Shown: in pieces, positions 6,004 through 55,653 of the stretch
Numbering within the stretch: the first letter of the stretch is position 1
Layout: the number at the start of each line of letters is the position of its first letter
Assembly: GCA_965224245.1 (NCBI GenBank)
Contig: OZ245046.1
Coordinates: 992,001 to 1,056,000, forward strand
Reading direction: 5' to 3'
Origin: Candidatus Eiseniibacteriota bacterium
Lineage (GTDB): Bacteria; Eisenbacteria; RBG-16-71-46; CAZAMP01
Length of the DNA stretch: 64,000 bases
Program-made: the position numbers and the translations under genes
Notes under the pieces: generated by a model
Databases searched by the model: none
What the model was told of the DNA's origin: nothing
What the model saw: only the letters and a program-made list of their open reading frames with translations

Positions 6004-6741
6004 ATGGTGAGACAGACACGCGCCAGTGGCATGAGGTGGATGGCCCCGGCGGCGCTGCTGGCCACGACGACACCCCATGCGGCGATGGCCGAGGGCACCA
6101 TCGACCCGCTTCTGCACGGCATCGCGACGGTCCTGGCCCTCGGCGACGAGACGGGCGGTAGCAGCTCCGATTTCGTGGCCTGGGGCTCTTTCGCCGTGAC
6201 GCGGACCGACTCGCTGATCGTGGGGTCTGATCGAGTCGACGCCACCGCATTCGTCAGTGCGACGATCGAGCCATCTCGGGCTCACATCGTGATGGACGAG
6301 TCGGTGGACGCGGACGTGGCGCAGTCGACCGAGACGCCTCACCTGGCGCGTGCCACGACGAGCACGTCGTTCCAGCTGGAGGTGGACGAGCCCACCGAGT
6401 TTCGTCTTCTCGGCACCCTCCACGTCGACAGCCCGCCGGGGCACGTCCGGATCAGCATTCGGGATCAGGGGACGGACGAGTACGTCGTTCGCATGCTCTT
6501 CGACGAGCCTGTCGACGATCAGGACGTCGATCTGACCGGGTACCTGGAGCCGGGTGTGTACACGATGAGGCTCGCGGCCACGGCGAGCGTCACCCACGAG
6601 ACACCGGAGCGATCGTCGATCACGGGCGTCGACGTCATCTTCGAGTACGTCCTACCGAACACCCCCGTCCGAACACTGTCCTGGGGGGGTATCAAGCGGA
6701 TCCACCAGGGACACGCGGTCGGGTCGCCCGATACGCGCTGA
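6004..6741 (+). CDS. Secreted hypothetical protein with C-terminal TPVRTLSWGGIKRIH tail
   Basis: 3' part of ORF 5533..6741. Start is probably ATG 6004 or 6031, ahead of the signal-like MAPAALLATTTPHAAMA. Beta-rich body; tail motif at 6661-6705. Confidence 0.75.
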   Translation: MVRQTRASGMRWMAPAALLATTTPHAAMAEGTIDPLLHGIATVLALGDETGGSSSDFVAWGSFAVTRTDSLIVGSDRVDATAFVSATIEPSRAHIVMDESVDADVAQSTETPHLARATTSTSFQLEVDEPTEFRLLGTLHVDSPPGHVRISIRDQGTDEYVVRMLFDEPVDDQDVDLTGYLEPGVYTMRLAATASVTHETPERSSITGVDVIFEYVLPNTPVRTLSWGGIKRIHQGHAVGSPDTR

Positions 6742-6858
6742 CCGGAAGTGCCGCCAGGACCCGATCGGCGCGAATTGAGGCCTCGAGCCCACACGCGGTA
6801 CAATCCACCGACAGACCTCGCAAACGCGCCCCGCACTCACCCCCGTGGAGGCAAGACA

Positions 6859-9114
6859 ATGAGGTCGTATTGCGCGTCCGCACTCCTGATGTTGCTGATT
6901 CCGGCCCCGGCGTTCTCCCAGGACTGCATCGATTTCGGCGACTATCTGCGCTGGACGGGTAGCACGAGCTTGTCAGGGAACCCCAGTGACGTCCTCATCT
7001 CGGGCGATCATCTGTTCGTCACCGGCGCATTCGGCTTGCAGGTGTTCGATGTCTCCAGTCCGGAGGATCCGTTCATCGTGGGAACCGGAGCCCCGGGGGG
7101 CACTCTCGCAGTGGATGTCTGGGGCACGATCGCATACCTCGCCAAGGGCGACTCGGGTCTCATGCTGGTGGATGTCTCGGATCCGGCGAGTCCTCAGGTC
7201 GTCGGCAGCATCGACACCGCCATGTTCATCTGGACCGCGGACGACGTTGCCGTCTCCGGTTCTCACGCCTACGTGGCGAACTACTACTTCGACCTGACCG
7301 AGTTGAGCTACTCGTACAGCCTGCAGGTGATCGACGTCACGAATCCGGAGGATCCACAGATCGTCGGAAGCGTGGACACGCCCCGTGGGGCCACGCGGGT
7401 CACGGTCTCGGGCAATCACGCTTACCTGGCCGACGGCACGGGGCTGCAGATCGTCGACATCACCGACCCGACGGCCCCACAGCTCGCGGGCACCGCGGAT
7501 ACGCCGGGACTGGCCGTCGACGTGGCTGTCTCCGGCTCCGCCTCCCATGCCTACGTCGCGGACTCGGAGTCCGGGCTACAGGTCGTCGACGTTGCGGACC
7601 CCGTGAACCCGGTGATCGTCTCCGGCGTGGACACGCCATGGCCACTTGCCGTCAGCAGGGTCGCCGTATCAGGTAGCCGCGCCTTCGTGACGGAGGACTT
7701 CACCGGCTCCGGACTGGAGATCGGCGGACTGAAGGTGATCGACGTCGCGGATCCGGCGTCTCCGAACATCATCGGCAGCGTGGGCATGCTCGGAGTCGGG
7801 ACCGGCGTGACCGTGGCGGGGAGCAGCGCCTTCATCGCAGCGGCGTCCGACCCGTACTTCGACGCCAGTCTGCAGATAATCGACATCACGAGCCCCGAGA
7901 GCGTGCCCTTCGTCGGAGTCCTGAATACGCCAGGAGATGCCACCGACGTGTACGTGTCGGGTGAACGCGCCTACTTGACGGCCAGCCCCACGTACAACGT
8001 CACGAGCCTGCAGGTCGTCGACATCTCGTTGCCCCAGAATCCCCAGCTACTCGGCGCCGTGGACATGCCGGGCCTGGCCCGCAACGTCGCGGTCTGGGGT
8101 GACCATGCCTACGCGGCCGCGGACTCCGGTCTGTACGTGCTGGATGTGACCGTCTCCACAGACCCCCAGCTCGTGGCACATCTGGATGCGACCGACCAGC
8201 TTCGTGACGTGGCGGTCCTCGGCGCCTACGCCTTTCTCGCGGATCGGGACTTCGGCTTTCGGGTGGTCGACGTCTCTGAGCCCGAGGATCCTCAGCTCGC
8301 CTTCAGCCTGGCCACACCCGGGTCGGCCAGGGGAGTGGCCGTGCAGGATACGTACGCGTACGTCACGGACGGTGACCATGGCCTGCAGGTGATCGACATT
8401 TCGATCCCGGAGTCCCCCTGGATCGCCGGCAACGTGATCACCCCGGGATCGGCTACAGGGGTCGCGGTCTTCGAGTCCCATGCCTACGTCACCGACTCGG
8501 TTTCCGGACTGCAGCTCATCGACATCAGCGATCCGGAGCTCCCTCACATCATCAGCGCGGTGGATACGCCGTCGCATGGCGGGCGGGTGGCGCTCTCGAG
8601 ATTGCATGCCTACGTGTCGGACGGCATCACCGGTCTCCACATCATCGACGTCGCCGTTCCCGAGGCCCCGCTACTCGTGGCCAGCGTGGACATGCCGGGG
8701 GCCGCCGGCGGGGTCGCCCTCAGCCCCGAACATGTCCACGTCGCGCAGGCTCACCCGTACTTCGACTCGGGTCTGAGGGTGTTCGCGCGCGACTGCGGAG
8801 ACCTGAGTGCAACGTCCTCCGAGGTGCCGGCCATGGGGACTCGCCTCCTCACGGCTCATCCCAATCCGTTCAATCCCCGGACGACGATCGGCTTCGTGCT
8901 GCCGGAAGCGACCACGGTCAGTCTTCGCGTGTTCGACGTTTCCAGCCGGATGGTACACGTCATTCTGGAGAACGAGGCTGCTCCGGCTGGGCAGCACGAG
9001 GTGGTCTGGAATGGCAGGGACGAGTCGGGTCGCCAGCTAGCGTCGGGGACTTACTTCTATCGCCTCGAGGCCGTGGGCTACGCGGAGACCAGGAGCGTGG
9101 TGCTCGTGAGGTGA
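6859..9114 (+). CDS. LVIVD-repeat secreted protein with FlgD-Ig/T9SS-like CTD
   Basis: GGAGG RBS before ATG 6859, signal peptide MRSYCASALLMLLIPAPAFS, LVIVD repeats, and a PNPFNPRTTI..WNGRDESGRQLASGTYFYRL CTD. Confidence 0.92.
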   Translation: MRSYCASALLMLLIPAPAFSQDCIDFGDYLRWTGSTSLSGNPSDVLISGDHLFVTGAFGLQVFDVSSPEDPFIVGTGAPGGTLAVDVWGTIAYLAKGDSGLMLVDVSDPASPQVVGSIDTAMFIWTADDVAVSGSHAYVANYYFDLTELSYSYSLQVIDVTNPEDPQIVGSVDTPRGATRVTVSGNHAYLADGTGLQIVDITDPTAPQLAGTADTPGLAVDVAVSGSASHAYVADSESGLQVVDVADPVNPVIVSGVDTPWPLAVSRVAVSGSRAFVTEDFTGSGLEIGGLKVIDVADPASPNIIGSVGMLGVGTGVTVAGSSAFIAAASDPYFDASLQIIDITSPESVPFVGVLNTPGDATDVYVSGERAYLTASPTYNVTSLQVVDISLPQNPQLLGAVDMPGLARNVAVWGDHAYAAADSGLYVLDVTVSTDPQLVAHLDATDQLRDVAVLGAYAFLADRDFGFRVVDVSEPEDPQLAFSLATPGSARGVAVQDTYAYVTDGDHGLQVIDISIPESPWIAGNVITPGSATGVAVFESHAYVTDSVSGLQLIDISDPELPHIISAVDTPSHGGRVALSRLHAYVSDGITGLHIIDVAVPEAPLLVASVDMPGAAGGVALSPEHVHVAQAHPYFDSGLRVFARDCGDLSATSSEVPAMGTRLLTAHPNPFNPRTTIGFVLPEATTVSLRVFDVSSRMVHVILENEAAPAGQHEVVWNGRDESGRQLASGTYFYRLEAVGYAETRSVVLVR

Positions 9115-9175
9115 AAGGGAAGCAGCCCGTCGAGAGACACCGCTCGGTTGGTGAGTGATGACCGTGCGCCGGTTC

Positions 9176-9308
9176 GCTCGAGGATCCCGGATACGACGTG
9201 TCGGGAAGTCCGTACGCGTACTACCACGTGACGACGACCGATCACGGTGGCAACGAGGGGGAGGCCGCGAGCATCGACGGCGAGCTGCTCTCGTCGGCTG
9301 ATGATGGG
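9176..9308 (+). pseudogene. Orphan fragment of an LVIVD-protein C-terminal linker
   Basis: Translates LEDPGYDVSGSPYAYYHVTTTDHGGNEGEAASIDGELLSSADDG, matching VDPMYDVSGSLFGYYHVTTTDHAGNEGEAASVEG (about 2013-2115) and paralogous segments near 5460 and 59670. No start codon and no CTD follows. Confidence 0.8.
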
Positions 9309-9351
9309 CGGCCGCCGGGAGGCGAGCACGAGTTTACGACGATCCGGCGAG

Positions 9352-9747: not shown

Positions 9748-10115
9748 GGTTCCCATCCCTCGTGGGGGGTAATGGCGTTCGTTCTCCCCCTTTCGGCAGG
9801 TTGCCCACCGTTTCCGAGGACTGAATCGCCCGATGGCGGACGACGGCCGACGTGGGTCCTGATGGCGCAGCGCACCCGTCCATCGTGAGGCAGCGGCTGC
9901 CCGATGACGAACCCTAACGCGGTCACGCGCTCCAGAGCGTAGGGGGACTTCCTGTTTGGAATGGCGTTCGGTTGATCCGGTGTGGGGTGGTGAGGTGCAG
10001 CCTCTCGCCCGTCATCTTCACCGTGATCCATTGAGGTCCACCCGAGCGTGACGGAGCCTCGGGCAGTTGCGGCGCATCGATTGGCGGAAGCACTGACGCC
10101 AACTTCGGTGGCGCG

Positions 10116-13100
10116 TCACAGGACCTCTTCGTCTATCTCGTCCTCGTCCTTGTCGATCCCGGGAGGCTGGGCCGCCTCCCGGCCGTTCCGGGGCACGGCA
10201 TCGCGGAGCTCCGGTGCGGGCGCGTCGGATGGACTGGCCGGCTCGATGCCCGGGTTCCGACCCGGGCCGGGCGCGTCGCCCGCGGGAGCCGCGCTCAGGG
10301 GCGGACCCGTGCGCAGCTGATCGATGCCCGGACCGGGACGCGGGCCGACCACCTGGGGGAGGACGGGCCTCCCGCCGACTCCACGGAGGAGGTCGTTGAA
10401 GCGTCCGGCCTGCTCCTCCAGATCGGCTTCGAGGGGATCGTACTCCTGTGTTGGTGGTTCCTCGGCCGCCGTGGACGGGGCCTGCTCACTTCTGATCCGC
10501 TCGTGGTACTCCCGCGCCAGTTCATCGGGGTCCGTGCCTCCCATCATCTGTGCCCATACGCCGAAGCCGTAACCTCCACCGTTCAACCAGTCGTACTGAC
10601 GATGCCAGCTGAGATTCGGATCCTCGGGAAGATCCCTGGGGTCGGTTCCCAGCGGATCGACCCGCGAGAGAGGATTCTGGAAGAACGCCTGGTAGGGATT
10701 GATGCTTTGCGGCTCGCGCAGTCCCAGAGGATCGCGTGAGATGAACCGGGCGCAGATCGGATCGTAGTACCGCGCCCGCATGGAGTAGAGATGGCCGTCG
10801 CGCACCACCCCGTACCGCCCGTGGAACGTGAAGGGGCTGTCCGACGCGCCGCTCTCGGCGAGGAGCCTGCCGAGGGCGTCGTAGGCGTAGCTGTCCGTGA
10901 TCGCGCCCGTGCCGTCGGTGAGGAAGATCGTCGAGCCCACCTCGTCGAAGTGGTGGAAGCGCGGCGAGTCGTCCCCGGCGTCGATCGTGTGCAAGAGGAG
11001 GCCGCCGGGTGTGTGGACGCAGTACGTGCGATCCACGGAACCGCGGGCGACACCTCCGTCACGGATCACCGAGATCGCGGGCAGACCGAGTGCGTAGTTC
11101 CAGACGAACCCCTGCGTCTCGGGCCCCTCGGAACGCGTGAGCACGTTGCCGAACGCGTCCCGGGTGAACCCGACCGGGGTCACCCCGTCGGAGTAGCTCT
11201 CGAGGCGTGAGGCCAGGTCCCAGGCGTACGTGTGCGTCCCGTCGTCGAGGAGACGCCCCATGTCGTCGTAGCTCGCGCCCACGACCTGGTTAGCCGGGTC
11301 GTACTCGTACTCGGTCAGTCCGAGTGCCGGTGTGGCGTGGAGCGGCACGTTCCGCACGGCCCCGGTGATGAGCCCCCGCGCATCCCGGGTGAGCGCGATC
11401 GACGAGAGCCCCGGTCCCTCGGTCGTCGCGATCAGGAGGTCCCGCTCGTCGTACGTGAACGCGGTCGTGACCCCGTTGGGTCGCTCGATCGAGGTGAGCC
11501 GCCGGTCGGAGTCGTAGGTGAGCGTCGTCATGCCCACCCAGTCGGTCACCGTGACCGGGAGCCCCCGGGCATCGTAGCCGTAGGTCACGACCTTGCCCGG
11601 GGCCAGGGTCAGCACCTCGAGCCGGCCGTCGGCGTCGTAGGTCATCGAGAGCCCGTTGCAATCGGTCAGTCGGTCGGCGGCGTCGTAGGCGAAGCTCGTG
11701 CCCGTGGCGGTGAGGAGCCGATCGTCGGCGTCGTAGCCGTACGCGAGCAGCGTGCCGTCGGAGTAGCTCCGCAGCACGAGGCGGCCCGCGGCGTCGTAGG
11801 TGAAGTTCACGACGCCGAGCCCGCCGGGGAGTGTGATCTCGCTGACCCGGCTCCGGTCGTCGTAGGTGTAGAAGTACTGGTTCCCGAGGGGATCACTCTC
11901 GGACGTCACGCGCCCGTGCGCATCGGCCGGGTTCTGCCACAGGAAGCCGCGCGGATCGGTGACGCTCGCCACCTGCATGAGCCCGTTCCGATCGTAGCTG
12001 GCCAGGATCCCCGGTGCGGCCAGCGCGACCTCGGAGATCCTCTCGTTGCCGTCGCGGGTGACGTTGGTGGTCGCCGCCACGGGGTCCGTCACGCGCACGA
12101 TGCGGCCCAGTGCGTCGTACGTGTAGCCCACAACATCCCCCAGCGGTGACTGCACCTCCGTGAGCCGACCCAGGGCGTCGCTCGTGAACGTCCACGTGTC
12201 GGCCAGGGGGGAGCGGATCGATGTCGGCACTCCCTCGGCGTCGTACGTGTAGATCCAGATCCCACCCGCCTCGTCCGTCAGCGAGGTGAGCCGACCCCGC
12301 GCGTCGTAGTCGAAGCTCACGACATCGCCCACCGGGTCGGTGATCGTCGCGATCCGTCGGAGGCCGTCTCGGGTGGCAGCGGTCACCAGGCCCAGGGGAT
12401 CGGTCACCGCCGTCAGGTCGTCGTTGAGGTCATACCCGAAGAGCGCCGAATGTCCGAGAGGGTCGGTGTGCATCCGTAGGTTGTCGTTGTCGTCGTAGGC
12501 GAAACCGGTGACGTGCCCGTTCTCGTCGGTGACGCTGGTGACGTTGTCGCTCGGGTCGTAGCCGATCGCGACCGTCACGCCGCCGGGACGGGTGATGAGA
12601 ATCGGGCGCTTGGCCGCGTCGTAGCCATGGGCCGTCGTGTTGCCGGATGGATCGGTGGCCGAGAGGAGCGTGGCGTCGGCGTCGTAGACGTACGTCCAGA
12701 CGCCCCCGTCCGGGTTCGTCACGGTCAGCGCCTGCCCCGCCGGGTTCCGGGTGTAGCTCCAGGTGTTCGCCTCGCGATCGGTGAACGAGACCACGTTGCC
12801 CGCCGCATCGTAGGTGATCGCGGCCGCCGCGCCGGTGGGGTAGTCGATGCCGGTGAGCACGTGGAACGTGAATCCGTCCTGGACCTGCGGGGTGTAGGTA
12901 TAGGTGAACGTGTTCCCGAGGTTGTCCGTCCGGCTCGTGACGTAGCCCGACATGGGGTCATGCGTGAGCGAGCTCGTGTCGCCCAGGCGGTCTGTCGTCG
13001 ATATCCGCCGGTGAAAGCCGTCGTAGGCGTAGTGGACCGTGTTTCCGGCCTCGTCCACGAAGCCCACGAGGCGACGCTCCGGGTTGAAGAGGTGGCTTCG

Positions 13101-15137
13101 CGGATTCCCCAGGGGATCGGTGATCGTCGTCGCGCCGGGCCCGTACGCGAAGCTCGTCACGTTGAGCTCGCCGTCGGCCTGGGCCAGCACGCGACCGTTC
13201 GGGAGGTAGGCGTTCTGGATCGGCACGTTGCCCACGGGCTCGGTGATCGCGAGAATGCGGCTGGCGCCGTCGTACGCGTACTGGGTCGTCTTCGCATCGG
13301 GGTCCGTGACCGTGGTCAGGTCCCTGCCCGTGTAGCCGTACTGCACCGTCCGACCACTCTGGTCGGTGACCGACACGATGCGGGGCGCGGCCCCGCTCAC
13401 CACGTAGCCGAAGCTCAGGGTTCGCCCCACGCCATCGTCGATCAGGGCCAGCGTGCCGTCGGGGTTGTAGGTGAGCGTATGTGTGTTGCCGCTCCGGTCT
13501 CGCACCCGCTCCAGCGGGCTCTGCTCCTGATCGGCCAGGGAGGCGAACTCGAACGTGAACATCAGGCGATTGACCGGATCCATCATCTCGAGCGTCGTGC
13601 CACTCTCGACCAGCTGAAACGGTGTGCCCCGGAAGGTGGTGAACCCCAGCGGGGCCGGCACCATCTGCCAGTCGGGACCCACCTTCTCGAAGAAGATCAC
13701 CATCCCGCGCTGGTAGTAGATCGCGACCCGGGTGGCGCCGAGTCGCAAGAGTGCATACTGATGGTTGTGCACCCAGTTCGCGCCCACGGGGCTGGATCCT
13801 GGAGCGTAGAAGCCCCAGAACGCGGCCGACTGGCCCACGAACGACCCGTGGTGGCGCGCGAAGCGGAGGGGAAGGTGGCCGCCGAGATCGAGGTCGGTGG
13901 CCCACGTGACGTACTCACCCAGCGATGTCACCACCGGATCGCTCGCTGCCGGTGGCGGAGACGGCTCGTTCGAGAGGGTCCGGAGCTCACCGAGCTCACC
14001 GAGCTCGAGCGCGCCGAGTTCGCCAAGCTCGTCGAGTTCACCGAGCGCGCCGACGTCGGAGCCGTTCGACCCACTCGACGGGAGCAGATCCGGATACCGG
14101 TACAGCTCCCCGGAAGTGGGCGGTGGGCGAACCTCTGCCGTCGTCGAGCAGTCGACCGCCGCCCCCCGGTCGTCGGTCACGGTCAACGTGACGACGTAGC
14201 TGTTCGGCGTCGTGTAGACGTGAGTCGGCGTCGGACCGCTTCCCATCGCGCCATCGCCGAAGTCCCAGTCGTAGCCGGCGATGCTTCCATCGGAATCGAA
14301 AGAGCCCGTGCCGTCGAACGTGATCGGCTCGTCGACCACGCCGCCGTAGGGCCCACCCGCGTCGCACACCGGAGGTGAGTTCGACGTCGTGTCGCACTCG
14401 GTGGAGATCGTCAGCTCCACGGCCCAGCGGTCTCCGAACCCGAGGTCGTTCAGGTCGGTCCAGCTGCCGTGCTCCCCGCTCAGGTTGACGTACGCATTGC
14501 CCGGGATCCCCGTTACGCCCTCGCGTCCGATCGACCAGTCCGCGGGAACGGTTCCGTTCACGTAGATCACCCCGACATACAGACGCTCGCCCTCGGTCAC
14601 CTCGCACGGGCATCCCGCGCTGACGAAGGAGACGTACTCGTGAACGACCGGACCTGCCTCGGGGATCGTGACGTCGAGAACCTTGGCGCACTCGCTACCG
14701 CAGGCGTCGTCGGGGATGCCACCTGCATCGCGCCAGAGGTAGAGATGGTATTGATCGCCGGGGTCGGCCTGCTCGAACCGGATGCGGGTTGCGGTCACGA
14801 CTCCGGCCGAGCACGCCTCGACCGCGAAGGCCATCCCGATGAGGTTCTGCGGGGTGCGGGCCGGGAACTCGGCGGGGACGCAATCACCCTGGACGAAGCT
14901 GCCCTCCAGACCCAGCGATGCACCCGTGGGAACCGCTCCCTGATCGGAGACGCACCCGGGTGAAGACCCCGACGCGCGGGCCGCCTCGCCCCGGGAATCG
15001 ACGCCGGTAGGCGGTGTGGTGCGAACGGTCGCTCGCTCGGCGTCTGCCGGCAGGGAGGTCAGGAGCGCGGCCAGGAGCGCAACCATGCCGGGGTATGACA
15101 TGCCTGACTTCCTGAAGACGGCCACGCTGTTGGACAT
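10116..15137 (-). CDS. Signal-peptide RHS/YD-repeat protein with PKD domain and RHS core
   Basis: Signal peptide, PKD motif (DAGGPY..FDGTGSFDSDG..YDWDFGDG), DPVVTSLGE motif (DUF6531-like), many YD repeats, core motif RARYYDP..RFISRDPLG..NPY..NPLSRVDPLG, and a 176-aa C-terminal tail. Confidence 0.92.
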   Translation of the reverse strand: MSNSVAVFRKSGMSYPGMVALLAALLTSLPADAERATVRTTPPTGVDSRGEAARASGSSPGCVSDQGAVPTGASLGLEGSFVQGDCVPAEFPARTPQNLIGMAFAVEACSAGVVTATRIRFEQADPGDQYHLYLWRDAGGIPDDACGSECAKVLDVTIPEAGPVVHEYVSFVSAGCPCEVTEGERLYVGVIYVNGTVPADWSIGREGVTGIPGNAYVNLSGEHGSWTDLNDLGFGDRWAVELTISTECDTTSNSPPVCDAGGPYGGVVDEPITFDGTGSFDSDGSIAGYDWDFGDGAMGSGPTPTHVYTTPNSYVVTLTVTDDRGAAVDCSTTAEVRPPPTSGELYRYPDLLPSSGSNGSDVGALGELDELGELGALELGELGELRTLSNEPSPPPAASDPVVTSLGEYVTWATDLDLGGHLPLRFARHHGSFVGQSAAFWGFYAPGSSPVGANWVHNHQYALLRLGATRVAIYYQRGMVIFFEKVGPDWQMVPAPLGFTTFRGTPFQLVESGTTLEMMDPVNRLMFTFEFASLADQEQSPLERVRDRSGNTHTLTYNPDGTLALIDDGVGRTLSFGYVVSGAAPRIVSVTDQSGRTVQYGYTGRDLTTVTDPDAKTTQYAYDGASRILAITEPVGNVPIQNAYLPNGRVLAQADGELNVTSFAYGPGATTITDPLGNPRSHLFNPERRLVGFVDEAGNTVHYAYDGFHRRISTTDRLGDTSSLTHDPMSGYVTSRTDNLGNTFTYTYTPQVQDGFTFHVLTGIDYPTGAAAAITYDAAGNVVSFTDREANTWSYTRNPAGQALTVTNPDGGVWTYVYDADATLLSATDPSGNTTAHGYDAAKRPILITRPGGVTVAIGYDPSDNVTSVTDENGHVTGFAYDDNDNLRMHTDPLGHSALFGYDLNDDLTAVTDPLGLVTAATRDGLRRIATITDPVGDVVSFDYDARGRLTSLTDEAGGIWIYTYDAEGVPTSIRSPLADTWTFTSDALGRLTEVQSPLGDVVGYTYDALGRIVRVTDPVAATTNVTRDGNERISEVALAAPGILASYDRNGLMQVASVTDPRGFLWQNPADAHGRVTSESDPLGNQYFYTYDDRSRVSEITLPGGLGVVNFTYDAAGRLVLRSYSDGTLLAYGYDADDRLLTATGTSFAYDAADRLTDCNGLSMTYDADGRLEVLTLAPGKVVTYGYDARGLPVTVTDWVGMTTLTYDSDRRLTSIERPNGVTTAFTYDERDLLIATTEGPGLSSIALTRDARGLITGAVRNVPLHATPALGLTEYEYDPANQVVGASYDDMGRLLDDGTHTYAWDLASRLESYSDGVTPVGFTRDAFGNVLTRSEGPETQGFVWNYALGLPAISVIRDGGVARGSVDRTYCVHTPGGLLLHTIDAGDDSPRFHHFDEVGSTIFLTDGTGAITDSYAYDALGRLLAESGASDSPFTFHGRYGVVRDGHLYSMRARYYDPICARFISRDPLGLREPQSINPYQAFFQNPLSRVDPLGTDPRDLPEDPNLSWHRQYDWLNGGGYGFGVWAQMMGGTDPDELAREYHERIRSEQAPSTAAEEPPTQEYDPLEADLEEQAGRFNDLLRGVGGRPVLPQVVGPRPGPGIDQLRTGPPLSAAPAGDAPGPGRNPGIEPASPSDAPAPELRDAVPRNGREAAQPPGIDKDEDEIDEEVL

Positions 15138-15899: not shown

Positions 15900-15929
15900 C
15901 CTGCCTTCATGCCTCGACACACGAGACGA

Positions 15930-17958: not shown

Positions 17959-18606
17959 TTGACCCGAGTGCTCATCGTCGCGTCGCTTGCGGTGCTGCCG
18001 GCCACCTCTGCCGCCTGGGACGAGATCCAGCGCCAGCAGGTGAACGACGAAGCCGAGATGTTCGCCTCGCACTGCTACGAGGAGATGTGGAACGAGGTCG
18101 CCGACGATGTGTACCTCGAGGGTGCGCTCGTCCAGGCAATCTCGTGGTGGGGGTTCTCCTACCACGATCGTGACCGGCTCGACTTCTACATCCGGTTCTA
18201 CGAGCGCACGGCGGAGGGAGCACCCGGAGCACTGGTCTACGAGCACCTGGCCGTGGACGTACCGGGTGAGGTCCGTCCCCCGTGGGGTCGGGAGTATCTC
18301 GCCGAGATCCCTCCGTTCCTGGCCAACGGCGACTACATGCTCAGCATCGTGGAGTACTGCCGAGACTACTACTTTCGCTGGCGGACCGGCGATGGCAACG
18401 ACGTGACGATCTGGATCCGTGGTGATCTCGATGGGGTTTCGCAGGGAGAGTGGACGAGTGGCGATCACCCCTGGATCGGCCTCGACGGGATCGACATGTC
18501 GTTCGTCCTGTGGGGCGAGCTACCGGCGACGCCGACCGAGGGCGTGAGCTGGTCGCGCATCAAGTCGACATATCGCGGATCGAGGCTCTCGAGCGGCCAG
18601 CGATGA
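17959..18606 (+). CDS. Secreted protein with C-terminal TPTEGVSWSRIKSTYR tail; passenger homologous to the PEP-CTERM protein at 32981
   Basis: GGAGG RBS before TTG 17959, signal peptide (M)TRVLIVASLAVLPATSAA, tail at 18529-18576. Confidence 0.82.
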   Translation: MTRVLIVASLAVLPATSAAWDEIQRQQVNDEAEMFASHCYEEMWNEVADDVYLEGALVQAISWWGFSYHDRDRLDFYIRFYERTAEGAPGALVYEHLAVDVPGEVRPPWGREYLAEIPPFLANGDYMLSIVEYCRDYYFRWRTGDGNDVTIWIRGDLDGVSQGEWTSGDHPWIGLDGIDMSFVLWGELPATPTEGVSWSRIKSTYRGSRLSSGQR

Positions 18607-23800: not shown

Positions 23801-26026
23801 TCAGTCGCGATCGATCACCGACCGGATGCCGGCCGCCCGGTCATGATCTCCACGTCTCTCGTAGATCGTGGCGATCTTGCCTCCGGTGAACACGAAGAGC
23901 GGCAGCACGCGCGGCTCCGCTCGCTCGATGGCCGTCCGGAACGCGTCGGCGGTCCCGGCGTGCAGCCCCTCGTCGCGAACGCGGGACGCGACGGACTGGA
24001 GCTCGGCCCGATGATCGGGGTGGCGCTGCGAGAGATCGTGACACCGGTTGACGATCGCCAGGATGTAGAAGTGGAGCGCCTCGTCGTGGCGACCGCGATG
24101 GAAGAAGGTGTTCGCGAGCTGCCCGTAGCTGGCGGGAAGCCGCCAGTCCATCGCGCCGTCACGCAGCTCGATCGCCTCCCGCAGCACCACCTCCGCCTCG
24201 GCCTGCCGGCCCAGCGCCGAGAGGACCTCTCCGTGACGTTGCGTCGCGGTGATTAGCCCGGGATGCCCGGGTGGAAGCGCGCGGAAGACCTCACGCGAAC
24301 GGGCCAGGTAGCTCACCGAGCGCTCCCACGCGACCGTTCGCGAGAGGAGATCTCCGTACTCGAGGAGGGTCCGGGCGAGCGCCTCGGTCGGCTGATCCGG
24401 ATACCGATCGAACATCTCGATCGCGGTCTCGAACGACTCGATCGCGGGCTCGAGCCCCGCGAGCTCTCGCGGCTCGTTCGGAGGCGAGGGATTTGTCAGC
24501 TGGAGGCACCGTGCCCGCGCGAATCCCAGGGCGCCCCAGGTCTCGGCCACCTGGAGACTGGGATCGCCGACCACCGACGCGAAGTGACCCCGCGCCTCCT
24601 CGAGATCGTCGAGCCCGCCGCAGTCCCTGGTCACCACCCGGGCGAGTCCGCGAACGTGGAGGAGTCGCGCATAGCGCGCGTCCCGCGGCGAACGGAGCGT
24701 CTCCCGGAGCGACAGCGCGCGATCGGCCTCGGTGAGGGCCTTCGTCCAGCGGTGGCTGCTGGCGTAGCGAAGCGCGAGTCGTTCCCGCACCCGCAGCTCG
24801 ATGTCGGGCTCGGCCGATAGCTCCTCGGTCGCACGCGCGGACGCGTAGTCGAGCTCGTCGATCGGCTCCCCGTCGGGACCCATGCCGGGCGAGAGGGTGG
24901 ACTCCAGGAACACCTCGACGCGGGAGGCTCGCAATGCGTTTCGCTCCGCCGACCGGTAGAGCACCGTCATCGTCACGCCGAAGGCGATGACGACGAGCGA
25001 CAGGACCGACATGACCGACGCCGCCACGGGATGCCGCCGCATGACGCGGCGCATCGACGACAAGACGGATGTCGTCTCCGCCTCGACCGGCTCTCCGGCC
25101 AGAACCCGGTCCAGGTCGCGGGCGAACGCGTCGATCGAGGGGTAGCGATCGTCGGACGACTTGGCCAGGGCCTTGCGGATCACCGCGTCGAGGGATCTCG
25201 TGACCCCGTGGTTGCGCTCGCTCGCGCGGCGCGGATCCTCGAGCGTGATGGCATGAACCGCCGACGCGAGCGAGGTCCCCAGGGGGTACGGCAGCTCGCC
25301 GGTCAGCATCTCGTGCAGAAGTACCGCGAGCGAGTAGAGATCGCTCCGTGCGTCCACACCCGTGGCGTCGCCGACGAACTGCTCGGGTGCGGCATACGCG
25401 ATGGTCCCCATGAACGAGCCGGGGCGAGAGGCCGACACCGAGAGGCTGGACAGCGACGCGGCATCTGCATCCAGCTTGGCCAGACCGAAGTCGAGAATGC
25501 GTGCCCGGCCCGCGGCGTCGACGAGCACGTTCGATGGTTTGAGATCGCGGTGAATGACGCCGCGCTGGTGCGCGTGGAGGAGGGCGTCGCAGACCTGCCG
25601 GCAGAGTCGCACGATCTCGTCCACCGACCGCCGGGCACCACCGTTGGCCGCCCACTCCGAGAGCGGCTCTCCCGCGATCCAGTCCATGACGAGGAAGCGC
25701 TGGCCGCCCTCGTAGATCACGTCGACCACGCCCACGATACCGTCGTGACGGAGCGCTCGCGCCGCCTCGATCTCCCGCTCGAAGCGAACACGACTCTGCT
25801 CGGACGCGAACGCGCCATGCAGGAGACGCTTGACGGCCACCGTACGGTTCCCGGTCCGGCCGCGGTACACGACACCCTGTCCGCCGCGACCGACCTCGTC
25901 GTCCAGCGTGTAGTCGCCGATCCGCCCGAGGGGCGCGCTCTGCTCCACCGCACGGATCCGATCGAACCAGGCGTCGTCGTCGGTCGGGAAGCCGAGGCGG
26001 CCCAGCTCCGGGGCGCGTGGTGTCAT
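23801..26026 (-). CDS. Hanks-type Ser/Thr protein kinase with TM helix and TPR-like C-terminus (ECF-associated)
   Basis: GRGGQGVVY, VAVK, HRDLKPSN, DFGLAK, GTIAYAAPEQ and a TM segment. The start overlaps the sigma stop (ATGA). Confidence 0.93.
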   Translation of the reverse strand: MTPRAPELGRLGFPTDDDAWFDRIRAVEQSAPLGRIGDYTLDDEVGRGGQGVVYRGRTGNRTVAVKRLLHGAFASEQSRVRFEREIEAARALRHDGIVGVVDVIYEGGQRFLVMDWIAGEPLSEWAANGGARRSVDEIVRLCRQVCDALLHAHQRGVIHRDLKPSNVLVDAAGRARILDFGLAKLDADAASLSSLSVSASRPGSFMGTIAYAAPEQFVGDATGVDARSDLYSLAVLLHEMLTGELPYPLGTSLASAVHAITLEDPRRASERNHGVTRSLDAVIRKALAKSSDDRYPSIDAFARDLDRVLAGEPVEAETTSVLSSMRRVMRRHPVAASVMSVLSLVVIAFGVTMTVLYRSAERNALRASRVEVFLESTLSPGMGPDGEPIDELDYASARATEELSAEPDIELRVRERLALRYASSHRWTKALTEADRALSLRETLRSPRDARYARLLHVRGLARVVTRDCGGLDDLEEARGHFASVVGDPSLQVAETWGALGFARARCLQLTNPSPPNEPRELAGLEPAIESFETAIEMFDRYPDQPTEALARTLLEYGDLLSRTVAWERSVSYLARSREVFRALPPGHPGLITATQRHGEVLSALGRQAEAEVVLREAIELRDGAMDWRLPASYGQLANTFFHRGRHDEALHFYILAIVNRCHDLSQRHPDHRAELQSVASRVRDEGLHAGTADAFRTAIERAEPRVLPLFVFTGGKIATIYERRGDHDRAAGIRSVIDRD

Positions 26027-34103: not shown

Positions 34104-36578
34104 TCAGTCGCACTGGAGTTGCATCCTCGTGAGCAGAGCCTCGAAGCGAGGATGCGATCGGAGCGGATCCAGTCGCGGATGGACCTTGATGAGGGCCAGT
34201 GTCTGATCGTGCGCATCGAATGCACGCTCCAGCCAGTCGAGGGCCGTCTCCACGTCCCCGAGGCACGCGTGAACCGAGGCGATCCCGTACGGCGAGACGT
34301 AGCGGGTCCTGGCCAGGGCCTTGATCTGGTCGAGGATGGCGAGCGCATCCTCCCGGCGGCCCATCCGCGCATAGACGTGAGCCAGTCCGGACGAGGGTTC
34401 CGGCGGTCCCTCGGGCGCGAGCGCCTCCGCCTTGCGGAACTCGTCGATCGCCTCCTCGTAGCGGCCCGCCAGCTCCAGTGCGCGCGCGAGATCCGTGTGA
34501 CCGGCGAGCAACGTCGGATCCATCTCGATCGACTTGCGGTAGTAGACCATCGCGTCCTCGTACCGGCGCGCGTAGAAGAACATGTCCCCCACCGAGGTGT
34601 GAAGAAGCGGTGAGAGTGGATCGAGACGAAGCGCCTGCTTGACGCAGGTGATGGCCTCCTCGTGGCGTCCCAGTCCGGAGAGAAGACCCGCGTAGAACCG
34701 GTAGGCGGTGGCGTACCCGGGGTTCAGCTCGATCGCTCGCGTGAACGACCGCTCCGCGGCGTCCCAGTCCCAGTCCCACATGCGCTGGATGAATCCCAGG
34801 GAGGTGTGAAGCTCCGCCCAGCCGTCGTCGATCGCGAGTCCCTGCAGGGCGGCCGTCTTCGCCGTCGGGTACGCCTCACCGGAGGGGAGCGCCTTGATGT
34901 TGCCGAGCACGCTGTAGCTGTCGGCGATACCGGCGAAGGCCAGCGCGAACAGGGGGTCGAGTGACCGGGCCTGGTCGAAGAACCCGATCGCGATGCGCAT
35001 GCCTTCGGGAGTCTTCCAGCGCGCCCACGCGTGTCGACCCTTGAGATAGGCCTCGTACGCCTGGGCGTTCTCGGTCTGGCGCCGCGCGAGCGTCTGCATC
35101 TCCTCGTGGCTGAGCTCGAAGCGAAGGTGCTCGGCGATCTCCCGGGCGAGCACGTCCTCGATCTCGAGAATCTCGGCCACGGTCCGGTCGAAACGCCGTC
35201 CCCACAGGACGCCCCCGTGCGCGGAGTCGACGAGCTCCGCCCGTATGACGAGCTTGTCCCCGCGCTGTCGCAGCCTCCCGGTGAGGATGGCGCGTACGCC
35301 GAGCTCGCGTCCCACGACCAGCGGATCGTCGCCGTGCTCGCGGAAGCGGACCACCGTGCTGCGAGCCATCACGCGCAGCCGCGGCAGACGCGAGAGATTG
35401 TCGATCAGCGCATCGGTGATGCCGTCGATCAGGTACTCGGAGTCGTCGGTTGCGCCGTCGTTCTGGAACGGGAGCACCGCGATCGAGTCGATCGTATCCG
35501 CGTGCTCGGCCTCCGTGGTCGAGATCCCACCGCGGGAGCTCGCGTCCGCACCGCGCTCCATCGACCGTCGCACCGCGGTGAGCTCGCGGAGCAGATCATC
35601 CGCACCCGCGTGACGCCGACCGGGGTCCTTCTGAAGACATCGATCGATGACGCGCGCCAGGTCGACCGGGAGCGAGGGGTCGTGGTCGGTCACGAGCCGG
35701 GGCGAGCGATTGAGAAGCGCTTCGAAGTAGGTAGCCGGCGTGCTTCCCTCGATGGGCACCTGGCCGGTCGCCATCTCGTACAGCACGACCCCGAGCGAGT
35801 ACAGATCGGTGCGTGCGTCGAGATTCTGGCCCCGGGCCTGCTCCGGAGACATGTAGAGGGGGGTCCCGGCCACGAGTCCGGACTGGGTGATCTGGTCATC
35901 GGAGGTCTCCGGGGCGACGAGCTTGGCCAGCCCGAAGTCCAGGATCTTGGCGAGCCCCCCGTGCGTGATGAACAGGTTGGCCGGCTTCAGGTCGCGATGC
36001 ACGATTCCGGCCCGATGTGCCGCATCGAGTCCCGACAGGATCTGCTCGGCGAGATCCAGCAGTCGCGAGACGTCGAGCCGGCCCGCATCGAGTCGCGACC
36101 GGAGCGTCTCTCCCTCCAGGAGCTCCAGCACCAGGTACGGCCCCCCCTCGACCTCGCCGATGTCATGGACCGTGCAGATGTTCGGATGATTGAGCGCGGA
36201 GGCGGCCCGGGCCTCGCGGAGGAAACGCTCGACGGGCGCGGGATCGGTGTGCGCCATCGGAGCGAGCATCTTGATCGCGACGGACCGTCCGAGCCGGGGA
36301 TCCCGGGCCCGATACACGACGCCCATGCCGCCTTCCCCGATGACGTCCACGATCTCGTACCGGTTCAGGCGGTCGCCGGCGCGAAGGACCCGGGAGGCGG
36401 CCGGGGTCTCCAGAAACCCCGACTCGGCGGAGTCGAAGGACCGGAGAAGGCCCTCCACATCGCTCCGCAGCTCGGGGTCGTCACCGCAGGCGTCGTCGAG
36501 CAGCCGCTGCCGGCGCGCTGGCGGGAGCGTACACACCTGCTGGAAGAGCGCCTCGGCTCGTTTCGCGCGACTGGTCAT
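34104..36578 (-). CDS. Ser/Thr protein kinase with TolB-like (SIAVLPF) domain and TPR repeats
   Basis: GEGGMGVVY, HRDLKPAN, DFGLAK, GTPLYMSPEQ, SIAVLPFQN, TPRs, ending DPLRSHPRF. Confidence 0.93.
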   Translation of the reverse strand: MTSRAKRAEALFQQVCTLPPARRQRLLDDACGDDPELRSDVEGLLRSFDSAESGFLETPAASRVLRAGDRLNRYEIVDVIGEGGMGVVYRARDPRLGRSVAIKMLAPMAHTDPAPVERFLREARAASALNHPNICTVHDIGEVEGGPYLVLELLEGETLRSRLDAGRLDVSRLLDLAEQILSGLDAAHRAGIVHRDLKPANLFITHGGLAKILDFGLAKLVAPETSDDQITQSGLVAGTPLYMSPEQARGQNLDARTDLYSLGVVLYEMATGQVPIEGSTPATYFEALLNRSPRLVTDHDPSLPVDLARVIDRCLQKDPGRRHAGADDLLRELTAVRRSMERGADASSRGGISTTEAEHADTIDSIAVLPFQNDGATDDSEYLIDGITDALIDNLSRLPRLRVMARSTVVRFREHGDDPLVVGRELGVRAILTGRLRQRGDKLVIRAELVDSAHGGVLWGRRFDRTVAEILEIEDVLAREIAEHLRFELSHEEMQTLARRQTENAQAYEAYLKGRHAWARWKTPEGMRIAIGFFDQARSLDPLFALAFAGIADSYSVLGNIKALPSGEAYPTAKTAALQGLAIDDGWAELHTSLGFIQRMWDWDWDAAERSFTRAIELNPGYATAYRFYAGLLSGLGRHEEAITCVKQALRLDPLSPLLHTSVGDMFFYARRYEDAMVYYRKSIEMDPTLLAGHTDLARALELAGRYEEAIDEFRKAEALAPEGPPEPSSGLAHVYARMGRREDALAILDQIKALARTRYVSPYGIASVHACLGDVETALDWLERAFDAHDQTLALIKVHPRLDPLRSHPRFEALLTRMQLQCD

Positions 36579-49684: not shown

Positions 49685-49714
49685 TTGACACCACGTGTCT
49701 GTGTGCATTATACG
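49685..49714 (+). promoter_or_regulatory. Putative sigma70 promoter (TTGACA-N18-TATACG)
   Basis: Perfect -35 upstream of 49805; imperfect -10. Confidence 0.4.
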
Positions 49715-52377: not shown

Positions 52378-54490
52378 CGGTGTCGCTTGCTGACTCCCGA
52401 GGGCCTGTAAGACGATGAAAGGAGAACCACTTATCCCGAACTCAGGTGCGTAAGACTGGGTGTCGCCTAAGTGCGTAACACTGGGTGTCGCTTGACATGG
52501 GCTACTTTCTGATCGACGCAGGCAGCACGGGTGCGATCAGTGCGACCGTCGATGATCGTTTCAAGCGTGCGGAGTACGTCTCGTCCGGTGAGTTGAAAGA
52601 GTTCGGGTTGTTCGGGGCCGCGGACGTGGATGGTGAGGGTGCCGGCGAGACGCTCTGCGGCGTCTCGATGAGCGACTTCGCCTTGAGCATCCCGGACACG
52701 CTCCCGATCCCGATCGGCGACACCGATTCCATCGGTGTCGCCGGGGGAATCCCCGAGCGCTGGAAGGAATCGACCGGAGCATCCGGCAATCGGGCGTCGA
52801 CATACTGCATCGGCTGGCTGAACGACCGCCCGGGCACGTCGGTCAGCTTCGGCTTCTGGGAGCCCGTCGACGACGTCGTGGAGTACCTCGTGCAGTTCAA
52901 CGATCTCGTCGAGGGGCCGATCTCGCAGAAGACCCTCTGGCAGCGCACGGCGAACCCGATCGGGGAGATCCAGAGGCCGTACTCGCACTGGATGGAGATC
53001 GGCTCGGACGACCGTGTGTTCGTCGCCCACGCGACGTCCGACGCCGAGGGGTACTATCTCGGAACGAAGACGGCTTGCGTGACCACCGATGGCGCCCAGT
53101 GGATCGTCGATCACGACCCGAGGTGGGGCGGCGATCGCCATCTCCTGCGGGACATCAACCTCACCAACGACGGTTTCGTCGCCGTTCTGATGGAGCGGCG
53201 ATACGACAACGGAGATGATCCCTGGTATCTCGGTCAGCTGGATCTCTACGATCCCGCAAGCGGGACGGTGATGCTCACGGCACCCGTGCTGTCCGATGCG
53301 TCGGTGAGCGGGAGCTATCTCTGGCGGAGCGTGCACGATCCGGAGCACGACGTGATCTGGGTGCTCGCGTCTTCGATCGCAGATGACGGCTATACGTTCG
53401 ACTTCGTCTACGAGGTCTACCGGTCGAACCTCCAGCGGGCTGCGGCCGGTCGCATCACCGCGCCGACGAAGCCCTTCATGTCCGAGAACGTCTTCGGTGC
53501 GGCGTGCGGGGGCAACGGAGACGTCTACTTCTCGGGAGTGGCCCTGCCCGACGTGGACTCCGAGGTCGACGCGTTCATCATGCGACTCGACTTCGACGGC
53601 AGCGACGCATCGGTCAACTACGTCAACACGCTCGATGCCGTGGATCTGACGGCACTCGACTCGGGGATCTTCGTGTCGGGTGAGACCGCCGAGTACATGA
53701 TCGGGGATCTGGCCGTCAATCGCTTCGGCGGCGCCGACGACGTCGTGATGCCGGGCTCCGTCTGGTGGTCGGAGACGAGCCGTGAGTACCAGGTGGCGCT
53801 TCGCGTCAAGAAGGACACGGGCCTGCCCGACCTGGTCTCGTCGACGCGATGGCCCGGGGGCTACGTCGTCTCGTACTTCGGTGAGATCGCCGGACGTCTC
53901 CTCGCGGCTGACATCGACGAGAACGGAGGGGTGGTACTCGGGGGTACGAGGGCGTTCTACGACACCGTCGAGGGATACTCCGGGGAAGCCAGCATCACGC
54001 GACGACCCTTGAACTCCTTGGAGTCACCCAGCGAGCGGTGGGATGTCTCTCTCCCCGGAGCATCGGATGCCAGCGGGCGCACATCCATGACGCGATCGGT
54101 TGCCTCGACATCCATCGCCGGGTATCTCTACCACGTGGCGGGCGGGACCGAACGAACAGGCGCGACGTCGCTGGAGTACCTCAACTGGAACGGGTTGTGG
54201 TCGTACGACTTGCCCATCGCGGTTCCGGGAGGTGGGGGCGAACGGCTCGAGTCGCTCCGGGTCACGGCGGGCCGACGACCCGTCGTCAAACACGCATTCA
54301 CGTTGGGGAATGGCGGTACAATAGACGTGTTTGGCACGGCGGGAAGACTGGTGCGCACGGTCGCGTTCGGGCCTGACGATGAGTACACGGTGCTTGATGA
54401 ATTGCCTGTTGGAGTCTATTTCCTGAGACTGGAAGCCAAGGAAGGACGTTCAGTTGGTAAGGCCATAGCGACTCCGTGAGGAGGGTCGGA

Positions 54491-55021
54491 ATGGACAGGC
54501 TGTTGGCGATCGGGACCTCACTTCTAGTTGGCTGCCTCGCTCAGGCTGCGCTCGCAGAGCAGCTGGATGTGGCGGTGACTGCCTATGTCGGCGACGAGCT
54601 CTGGGACTTTCAAGGGTTCGTCGAGTTCCACGATGTGGACAGAGAGTACGGAGAGACCTTCGTCATCGAGTTCCAGTGTGAGCCAGACGACGAGAACACC
54701 GAGCTGTTCGTGATGACGTTCGATTCGCGTTCCGGCGATGGTAGGGGTGAGACGGGAATACGAGCGATTGGAGAAGCGCCCGACCGATGGGATCGGATGG
54801 GGGTCCGTTACGTGCGGTACGAGAATCTCGGGGAACGATCGTTTCGATCGAGCTTCGGCGCGACGCATGGCACCGAAGCATACGTACCCGGGGATCGCAT
54901 CTCGAAGGTCCGGATCCACGCATGGGGGAACACCACCGAGGTGTTCGATGTGCTCATATCGAACTACGATGTACCTGTCATGAATGCCTCGTGGACGAGA
55001 ATCAAGAACCACTACCGCTAG
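54491..55021 (+). CDS. Secreted hypothetical protein with C-terminal VPVMNASWTRIKNHYR tail
   Basis: GAGG RBS, signal peptide, tandem paralog of 55123. Confidence 0.85.
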   Translation: MDRLLAIGTSLLVGCLAQAALAEQLDVAVTAYVGDELWDFQGFVEFHDVDREYGETFVIEFQCEPDDENTELFVMTFDSRSGDGRGETGIRAIGEAPDRWDRMGVRYVRYENLGERSFRSSFGATHGTEAYVPGDRISKVRIHAWGNTTEVFDVLISNYDVPVMNASWTRIKNHYR

Positions 55022-55122
55022 TCGGCGATCGTCTGGTCCCGGCCGCCTTCGGCGACTCTCCTGCGCGTTATCTTGCTTGCGACGCTCCGGGGCCACCCAT
55101 GCAACTCGGTGAAGAGGGCGGA

Positions 55123-55653
55123 ATGAACAGACCGCTGACAGTGGGGAGCTGTCTTCTGGCCGGTGCCTTCAGTCATGTTGCGCTGGCGGAGCAACTGGAA
55201 GTGGCGGTGACCGCCCACGTCGGCGATGAGCGCTGGGACTTCCAAGGGTTCGTCGAGTTCCACGATGTGGACCGAGCGTACGGGGAGGTCTTCGTCATCG
55301 AGTTCCAGTGTGAACCGGACGACGAGAACACCGAGCTATTCGTGATGACATTCGACTCGCGATCTGGTGAGGGCAGGGGCGAAACCGGAGTACGAGCCGT
55401 GGGAGACGGCCCGGACCGATGGGATGGGATGGGGATCCGCTACGTGCGTTACGAGAACCTCGGGGAGCGGTCGTTTCGATCGAGCTTCGGCACGGCGCAC
55501 GGCGCCGATGCCTACGTTCCCGGGGATCGCATCTCGGAGGTGCGGATCCACGCCTGGGGGAACACCACCGTGGTGTCGGATGTGCTCATCGCAGACGATG
55601 ACGTACCGGTCGTGAACGCCACGTGGGCGAGAATCAAGAGCCACTATCGGTAG
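55123..55653 (+). CDS. Secreted hypothetical protein with C-terminal VPVVNATWARIKSHYR tail
   Basis: Same length as 54491..55021, with long identical stretches. Confidence 0.85.
   Translation: MNRPLTVGSCLLAGAFSHVALAEQLEVAVTAHVGDERWDFQGFVEFHDVDRAYGEVFVIEFQCEPDDENTELFVMTFDSRSGEGRGETGVRAVGDGPDRWDGMGIRYVRYENLGERSFRSSFGTAHGADAYVPGDRISEVRIHAWGNTTVVSDVLIADDDVPVVNATWARIKSHYR

Follow-up and report, generated by a model that had tools for sequence, protein, structure and literature searches.

A modular C-terminal tail on exported-type proteins of Eisenbacteria: a probable sorting or attachment tag with a candidate PorU-like reader

Four genes in one stretch of a Candidatus Eiseniibacteriota genome (assembly GCA_965224245.1, contig OZ245046.1, positions 992,001 to 1,056,000; 64,000 nucleotides, written G000:C1:992001-1056000 below and called ‘the window’) encode proteins that share a short tail, and they raise the question of whether that tail is a sorting signal and, if so, what reads it. 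The window has a G+C content of 63–69% and belongs to a genome of 6.94 Mb in 27 contigs. Prediction of where a bacterial surface protein will end up relies chiefly on its C-terminal sorting signal, and every described signal is, to our knowledge, either a signature with a membrane helix that is read by a membrane protease or, in the type IX secretion system (T9SS), a whole immunoglobulin (Ig)-like domain. The tail fits neither type, yet it is near-ubiquitous in the genomes sampled from two phyla. On balance we lean towards regarding it as a modular tag for sorting or attachment at the C-terminus, with a dedicated PorU-like paralog as its probable reader.

The tail at the protein end

In the four window genes the tail follows the consensus [TV]-P-x4-[ST]-W-x2-[IVL]-[KR]-x2-[YFH](R). 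All four copies are in the places given in a preliminary description of the window, on passengers that form three groups unrelated by blastp, as that description had claimed. Its term ‘C-terminal’ holds for all four tails; the tail forms the extreme C-terminus in genes 3 and 4, but not in genes 1 and 2, where 11 and 9 further residues follow it.

Across the genome, analysed as 59,396 stop-to-stop frames of ≥60 aa from all six reading frames, the core [ST]W..[IVLM]K..[YHF] was matched 107 times in forward sequences, compared with 6 times in reversed sequences and 1–3 times in each of five shuffles. The motif was not randomly placed: 99/107 matches lay within the last 30 residues of the open frame, with ≤3 residues after the aromatic position in 77 of these 99 K-type tags and ≤18 in all 99. 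Columns outside the search pattern were also kept, with Pro six residues before the Trp (W-6) in 95/99 and Thr or Val at W-7 in 86/99. Arg came after the aromatic residue in 49/99 tags, with the stop next in 42, and the aromatic residue was itself last in 15/99. A profile of the core, which added variants with Arg replacing Lys or Trp replacing Tyr, recovered 120 open reading frames (ORFs) with a tag ≤20 residues from the stop, roughly 1 ORF in 50 of the genome (basic position K in 105, R in 12, other in 3). Exactly four of the 120 are in the window, next to 16 ORFs that match the genome's own profile of the T9SS-type domain; the four carriers first counted are real, yet they are only four of about 120. 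As judged from these sequences, the tag comprises a T/V-P signature, a four-residue spacer and a putative short amphipathic helix, [ST]-W-[GSA]-x-[IVL]-[KR]-x-x-[YFH], mostly closed by Arg, and occupies about 16 residues, 16–20 at most. It contains neither a membrane-spanning segment nor an Ig-like domain.

Selection acts on the protein and not on the DNA, since the Ser at W-1 is coded by both AGC (43 times) and TCN (36 times) and no conservation was found in the sequence past the stop codon of tagged genes; the remaining codons match genome usage. Codon use and the unconserved downstream sequence rule out a DNA-level repeat or terminator. Four further good tags sit inside long frames and are followed by 39–560 open Arg/Pro-rich codons (listed in Table 1). 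These frames look like G+C-rich non-coding read-through from lost or late stop codons, and not like fusions.

A short helix, as in the preliminary description, is also what AlphaFold2 predicts, at W..IK..Y, in two unrelated families. The largest tagged family was modelled as a beta-sandwich (predicted local distance difference test, pLDDT, 89) with a predicted helix at W204-S209 and a tail pLDDT of about 80; the f2 array family, from other genomes, was likewise modelled as a beta-sandwich, with a tail appendage of pLDDT about 54 and a predicted helix at W234-Y241. Drawn as a helical wheel, the stretch would place W, I/L/V, position +6 and Y on one face, with K/R at its flanks. Cohesin modules were the best Protein Data Bank (PDB) matches of the largest-family model, and are weak (template modelling, TM, score 0.33–0.57); Foldseek gave the f2 model weak matches to cohesins and Gram-positive pilins (pilin TM 0.17–0.33).

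A 22-column profile of 23 tails (E≤0.1) found the tag in 199/201 Eisenbacteria genomes sampled (the unpublished G015 among them), with at least 4,993 matches, and at E≤0.01 the tag was present in 81/81 genomes of a second phylum, that of genome G205, for which the Atlas suggests Krumholzibacteriota. A degenerate DNA pattern, applied to one genome per species, gave at least 125 loci, and the named records among the matches listed were nearly all Eisenbacteria. A few matches under other labels had genuine-looking tails, in genomes that hold 2–98 matches each. Genomes G201, G202 and G204, labelled Saccharimonadaceae (a 3.1-Mb genome), Udaeobacter and Gammaproteobacteria, gave 21, 10 and 3 matches; the labels or the binning of these tag-bearing metagenome-assembled genomes are probably wrong. 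In 1.84 billion representative proteins only 213 passed E≤0.001, a limit imposed by the brevity of the profile, and 142 of the best 150 matches finished ≤3 residues from the protein end. Family f6 (G012, G019, G034, G054, G115) carries a narrow tag flavour of its own, TTWGKIK, with a low profile score; there is therefore no clean tag-absent group, and f6, considered as a tag-poor contrast for phylogenetic profiling, was dropped. Several f6 carriers have a dockerin-like DxNGDG loop right after the signal peptide.

Carriers and the T9SS domain

The 99 K-type carriers form 47 blastp clusters, the largest with 18, 14 and 12 members. Modules recognised on tagged proteins by Pfam or NCBIfam are right-handed Beta_helix, PD40 propellers, DUF7901, GEVED, CBM96, X25/CBM20, DNRLRE and choice-of-anchor X. 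A signal-peptide heuristic was positive for 76/120 tagged ORFs, a rate equal to that of the T9SS-domain ORFs that served as positive control (303/456), compared with 91/600 and 33/600 other ORFs; the co-occurrence of tail and signal peptide, put forward at the outset as a check, is thus seen across the genome. Carriers have a median length of 228 aa with chosen starts and 296 aa stop-to-stop, whereas T9SS-domain carriers have 772 aa stop-to-stop. Public homologs of the largest tagged family keep the tail and are unnamed or annotated as ‘hypothetical protein’.

Tag and T9SS domain never occurred on one ORF. None of the 120 tagged ORFs matched the genome's own profile of the T9SS C-terminal domain (CTD), which is found on 456 ORFs, in agreement with the earlier claim that the four window proteins have no FlgD-Ig CTD. 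Paralogs exist for 64/99 tagged passengers, many of them with a T9SS domain, and in pairwise alignments the tag starts exactly where the paralog's linker to the T9SS domain starts, a like-for-like swap. Three C-terminal sorting classes occur in this one genome: 456 T9SS-type domains, about 120 tags and about 8 PEP-CTERM signals. In the window itself the FlgD_ig form of the T9SS domain was present in 10 of the 28 larger ORFs scanned (a positive control) and PEP-CTERM in one protein (PF07589, 32984-33715, minus strand, 28 bits against a cut-off of 20.7), and the motif does occupy the place where neighbouring proteins carry a CTD or PEP-CTERM. The tail is therefore a conserved, strictly C-terminal and modular element on proteins with export-type N-termini, which excludes and replaces the T9SS domain. 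Because of its position, signal-peptide co-occurrence, modularity, T9SS-domain exclusion and junction swaps it fits a sorting or anchoring signal, and we consider it likely to be such a tag. Position, modularity, exclusion and swaps also support the proposal with which the work began, of a tag for an uncharacterised export or attachment machinery.

Gene neighbourhoods in this genome yielded no obvious candidate for a shared machine gene beside tagged genes. T9SS-domain genes were near 77/120 tag loci, where a rough Poisson expectation from 456 genes is about 52%. Within 5 kb of tag loci, a cluster of tetratricopeptide repeat (TPR) proteins was found at 21/120 and extracytoplasmic function (ECF)-type sigma factors at 10/120, as raw counts.

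No catalogued signal matched the tail. At E≤10 the four window proteins had no match in Pfam or NCBIfam, the models of the T9SS type A CTD (TIGR04183, PF18962 and PF13860, FlgD_ig; 0 families) included, and the 60 tagged proteins scanned showed no CTD family and no match to the tail; nor did the PEP-CTERM profile (PF07589) match in tagged proteins. NCBIfam release 20 at E≤10 gave no tail match and no CTD family in the four window proteins, 36 full proteins and four bare 22-aa tails, although HMMER filters may drop very weak matches, and on these same sets none of its sorting-signal models, WGxxGxxG-CTERM (NF038039) included, matched the tail. WGxxGxxG-CTERM is, in 10.1101/2023.06.07.544157, an orphan signal whose motif differs from the tag. 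Literature searches on the motif strings, on Eisenbacteria and secretion, and on new sorting signals found no description of the tail. The suggestion that it has no established name therefore stands, after the comparison with the NCBIfam/TIGRFAM sorting-signal set for which the preliminary description had called, and no outcome named beforehand as refuting the tag occurred.

The tag resembles the T9SS type A CTD, on which PorU acts, in being C-terminal on Sec-exported, mostly surface-type proteins, in being interchangeable between passengers at the junction where paralogs carry the T9SS domain, and in its linkage to the gene of a PorU-family C25 peptidase, in genomes that have SprA and PorU. 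Unlike the CTD, an Ig-like beta-sandwich of 67–108 residues according to PMC11285876, the tag has 16–20 residues with a predicted helix; it is without a profile match, its carriers are smaller, and the enzyme linked to it scores below the PorU cut-off. PMC11285876 reports the Ig-like domain as necessary and sufficient for T9SS export. Like tripartite signals (LPXTG, PEP-CTERM, PGF-CTERM, GlyGly-CTERM, MYXO-CTERM), which are read by sortase, exosortase, archaeosortase, rhombosortase or myxosortase, the tag is found on many unrelated passengers, including ‘choice-of-anchor’ type domains; in this genome it coexists with PEP-CTERM. Its order of Pro-containing signature, helix and terminal basic residue resembles theirs in part: T/V-P is present (P in 95/99), and the aromatic residue is followed in 49/99 by a single Arg, not by an Arg-rich cluster. 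Tripartite signals combine such a cluster with a hydrophobic segment that spans the membrane (10.1101/2023.06.07.544157); the tag has no such segment, only 8–9 residues beyond the Trp and a helix that would be amphipathic. The enzyme proposed for it is a C25 peptidase, soluble or at the surface, and so differs from the membrane proteases that read tripartite signals.

In the whole genome nothing scored over 20.8 bits with IPTL-CTERM (PF18203 / TIGR04174), the best score, 17.5, falling in the window's PEP-CTERM protein and in no tagged ORF. IPTL-CTERM starts with Pro, a few residues and S-x-W-G, and has a transmembrane helix; kinship with it, suggested by a likeness in this start, had no profile support and was rejected. 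In the Atlas, IPTL-CTERM is found on 40% of the proteins in one distant cluster close to the cohesin-like family (score 0.79), which is no more than a lead. The tail also differs from the beta-signal of outer-membrane beta-barrels: its aromatic residue is last in only 15/99, and both modelled passengers are predicted to be soluble beta-sandwiches with a helical tail.

The PorU-like paralog and its linkage to tagged genes

In the five tag-rich genomes checked, a true PorU is accompanied by a divergent full-length paralog with Propeptide_C25, Peptidase_C25 and FlgD_ig, and in 5/5 SprA, the T9SS pore, scored over its cut-off. In the present genome the paralog lies about 1.98 Mb beyond the window. 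It is a member of Peptidase_C25 (PF01364, 206 bits against a cut-off of 23) and shares 25% identity over >1100 residues with the genome's own PorU, but falls below the PorU model NF033707 (213.6 against 420 bits, with the true PorU at 468.8). NCBIfam describes a second PorU-related peptidase family beside PorU, PorU2 with PorVQ2, to which the paralog is comparable; unlike members of that family it fails the PorU2 cut-off (NF052324, 81 against 450 bits), and PorVQ2 (NF052325) had no match over cut-off in this genome. The paralog therefore represents another PorU-like branch that is not yet catalogued. A sequence comparison with the PDB gave a single relative, PorU (6ZA2). His1015 and Cys1060, which we take to be the catalytic residues of the C25 peptidase, are invariant in 20/20 paralogs from both phyla, and Cys1060 aligns with the A-T-C motif of P. 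gingivalis PorU in 6ZA2. Genome G006 has two adjacent PorU-like paralog genes (G006:C12:22359-27843, minus strand; E 3.5e-57 and 5.2e-48 to the paralog profile described next), with a third match elsewhere.

Linkage was scored with a profile built on the first 450 residues of the paralog, of which the best hit is the paralog and the second hit the true PorU; it matches in 119/121 near-complete Eisenbacteria genomes, mostly with two hits each. Within 14 kb upstream of the best hit, same-strand tagged ORFs were present in 10/20 Eisenbacteria regions (36 on the same strand and 1 on the opposite strand in 250 kb), and in 5/15 once the five genomes where the coincidence had been noticed beforehand were left out, compared with 1/15 regions downstream of the paralog and 1/25 upstream of the true PorU. 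The single true-PorU exception is G044, where the hit ranks may be swapped. A first, non-blind look at wider Eisenbacteria flanks gave tags in 7/12, two of the five misses having <4 kb. In the second phylum the analysis covered the top 20 loci in rank order, 18 of them with ≥1.5 kb of upstream sequence, and 15/18 upstream regions hold same-strand arrays of 2–5 tagged genes that end 215–460 nt before the match, with 44 tags in 113 kb upstream versus 0 in 146 kb downstream. At least nine groups without blastp or hhalign likeness are represented among the tagged proteins linked to the paralog, and the linked array proteins are uniform in size at about 165–260 aa, one pair of about 395 aa excepted. 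In sum, the tail is spread through two phyla and shows genomic linkage to a PorU-like paralog whose His/Cys pair is intact.

Genes for SurA-like parvulin isomerases lie between the arrays and the peptidase gene in Eisenbacteria, in f1 and f6 together with a UbiA-family gene. A tagged gene adjoins a SurA-like isomerase gene in this genome (242-nt gap, same strand), in G043 (11-nt gap), in G018 and in f2 (convergent). ‘Conserved unknown proteins’ X, Y, A and B, placed between arrays and peptidase, were rejected as antisense frames of UbiA, phosphodiesterase and parvulin isomerase genes on the evidence of third-position GC and Pfam. The arrays resemble Gram-positive pilin clusters with their pilus-specific sortases, in which tandem genes for small beta-sandwich proteins share a sorting signal and adjoin a paralog of the housekeeping enzyme, the same signal also being found on scattered genes. 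They differ in that the enzyme is a C25 peptidase and not a sortase, in the envelope and in the weakness of the structural matches to pilins.

Because of the conserved gene linkage and the intact His/Cys pair, the paralog may be the reader of the tag, a proposal that we make tentatively. In such a route carriers would be exported by Sec and lose their signal peptide, as their N-termini suggest, and would then undergo periplasmic handling, for which the SurA-like prolyl isomerases with genes beside tagged genes are possible agents, before passage to the cell surface, the tag-rich genomes checked all having SprA. The dedicated second PorU-like C25 cysteine peptidase would then recognise the tail and cut or transfer it near the T-P signature, in parallel to PorU, which removes the T9SS domain and anchors the cargo. 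More speculatively still, two uncultured phyla might run a second, so far undescribed surface-sorting branch beside T9SS, in which a helical tail of 16 residues replaces the Ig-like domain of 70–100 residues, with its own PorU-like sortase beside cohesin/pilin-like arrays (and SurA-like chaperones in Eisenbacteria); about 2% of the proteome would then serve to build or decorate a surface assembly.

Several observations weigh against this explanation, of a tag read by the paralog. A tag was within 1.5 kb of the paralog at only 1/30 Eisenbacteria loci; the Eisenbacteria arrays are 3.4–13 kb from it and, in f2, convergent with intervening isomerase genes, so that array and paralog do not form one operon. 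Only 1/120 tagged genes of the present genome is near the paralog, 6.9 kb upstream: on the minus strand this tagged gene (C1:3047343-3048083) is followed by three isomerase genes, next by a 248-aa ORF and a UbiA-family gene, both on the plus strand, and last by the paralog. The linked arrays are mostly of one family per lineage (42/44 in the second phylum; 37 in f2), and the linkage may be a matter of those array subunits more than of the tag as such. Locus counts overstate independence, since the genomes of one phylum share ancestry. Known PorU substrates need an Ig-like domain of 67–88 residues (PMC11285876); for a tail of only 16 residues, passage across the outer membrane is hard to account for. 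The paralog could instead serve one of two T9SS-domain subtypes. Moreover, the basic residue is K or R (105 versus 12), and there is accordingly no fixed chemical acceptor.

Other readings of the tail have to be set beside these points. Were it to act unprocessed, as a non-covalent anchor or docking peptide whose amphipathic helix binds a membrane leaflet, lipopolysaccharide or a receptor (cohesin-like domains), this would suit the helix predicted at W..Y in two families, the beta-sandwich models of the largest tagged family and the f2 array family, with PDB matches that include cohesin modules (TM 0.3–0.57, weak), and the dockerin-like DxNGDG loop of f6 tagged proteins. Such an anchor seems unlikely to us, given that in-plane membrane anchors are seldom so conserved (P 95/99, W invariant by selection, K/R 117/120), that the tagged ORFs of this genome show no enrichment of dockerin-like loops (2/120 versus 23/456 T9SS-domain ORFs), that the fold matches are weak, and that the fixed-distance T-P signature and the C25 peptidase linkage would be left unexplained. 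Somewhat less likely again is that the paralog serves only the small array proteins, as pilin- or cohesin-like fibre subunits, and that the other roughly 100 carriers are read otherwise or by the ordinary T9SS; the family composition and size uniformity of the arrays, the weak Foldseek matches of the f2 model to Gram-positive pilins and cohesins, and the solitary tagged gene near the paralog in this genome are as this would predict. The tail is nevertheless the sole feature common to the nine linked families, the pilin matches have a TM of only 0.17–0.33, and in Gram-positive bacteria related sortases read one signal type on the products of clustered and of scattered substrate genes alike.

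The abutment of tagged and isomerase genes in this genome, G043, G018 and f2, together with the preference of SurA for aromatic-rich peptides, would agree with a periplasmic handling signal, either a client motif of SurA-like parvulins or a retention or quality-control mark, on carriers that stay in the periplasm. This is improbable, however, in that the passengers are typical extracellular modules whose paralogs carry the surface-directing T9SS domain, and in that the second-phylum arrays abut the peptidase gene itself. That the tail is no functional unit, being a chance motif, a DNA repeat over gene ends or the last element of one fold, can be given almost no credence and is refuted by the chance control (107 forward versus 1–6 control matches), by the 47 passenger clusters and by codon variation, both synonymous and between non-synonymous families; the low-confidence, flexible linker modelled before the helix likewise speaks against a last element of one fold. 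A sorting or anchoring tag therefore remains the reading that we prefer. A profile of it would improve secretome prediction in these soil and sediment lineages, where carriers are now annotated as ‘hypothetical’; the linkage to the paralog offers a concrete candidate enzyme and, if it holds true, the known substrate range of the PorU family would widen.

Window genes and neighbours

Positions of the tagged genes and of the other features discussed are collected in Table 1. The coordinates of the preliminary description are the first base of each motif. The start codon of gene 1 was picked by a crude hydrophobicity score and is uncertain. In the cluster of gene 2, Pfam DUF7901 was found in 3/6 paralogs scanned, gene 2 itself being without a Pfam match, and a word-index search for homologs of gene 2 found only gene 2 itself.

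Table 1. Coordinates of tagged genes, tags, the PorU-like paralog and neighbouring features
Feature	Position	Strand	Details
Tagged gene 1	window 6031..6741	+	236 aa from ATG 6031; singleton passenger family; signal-peptide-like start MRWMAPAALLATTTPHAAMA
Tag of gene 1	window 6661..6705	+	TPVRTLSWGGIKRIH; 11 further residues, then stop
Tagged gene 2	window 17959..18606	+	215 aa from TTG 17959; in 12-member tagged paralog cluster
Tag of gene 2	window 18529..18576	+	TPTEGVSWSRIKSTYR; 9 further residues after tag
Tagged gene 3	window 54491..55021	+	176 aa; tandem paralog of gene 4
Tag of gene 3	window 54971..55018	+	VPVMNASWTRIKNHYR-stop; ends protein, ..HYR-stop; among top scorers of phylum scan
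Tagged gene 4	window 55123..55653	+	176 aa; tandem paralog of gene 3
Tag of gene 4	window 55603..55650	+	VPVVNATWARIKSHYR-stop; ends protein, ..HYR-stop
PorU-like paralog	G000:C1:3035872-3040440	-	1515 aa; Propeptide_C25, Peptidase_C25, FlgD_ig
Three tandem SurA-like parvulin (Rotamase) genes	G000:C1:3042039-3047102 (L269:2039-7102)	-	directly downstream of tagged cohesin-like gene
Frame with run-on after tag	G000:C1:2709692-2711167	-	
Frame with run-on after tag	G000:C1:2551940-2554735	-	
Frame with run-on after tag	G000:C1:3281394-3282077	+	
Frame with run-on after tag	G000:C1:6267449-6268375	-	
LVIVD-repeat protein	window 3-2426	+	
LVIVD-repeat protein	window 2595-5864	+	
LVIVD-repeat protein	window 6748-9114	+	
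LVIVD-repeat protein	window 56789-60073	+	

The four LVIVD-repeat proteins are large beta-propeller proteins with a T9SS-type domain, and their genes flank tagged genes 1, 3 and 4. Amid the surface-protein genes, window 10116-15137 (minus strand) encodes a polymorphic protein of the RHS/YD type, a 1673-aa ORF in which RHS repeats, PKD domains and DUF6531 were recognised. Two Ser/Thr protein kinases with TPR repeats are encoded at window 23801-26026 and 34104-36578, both on the minus strand.

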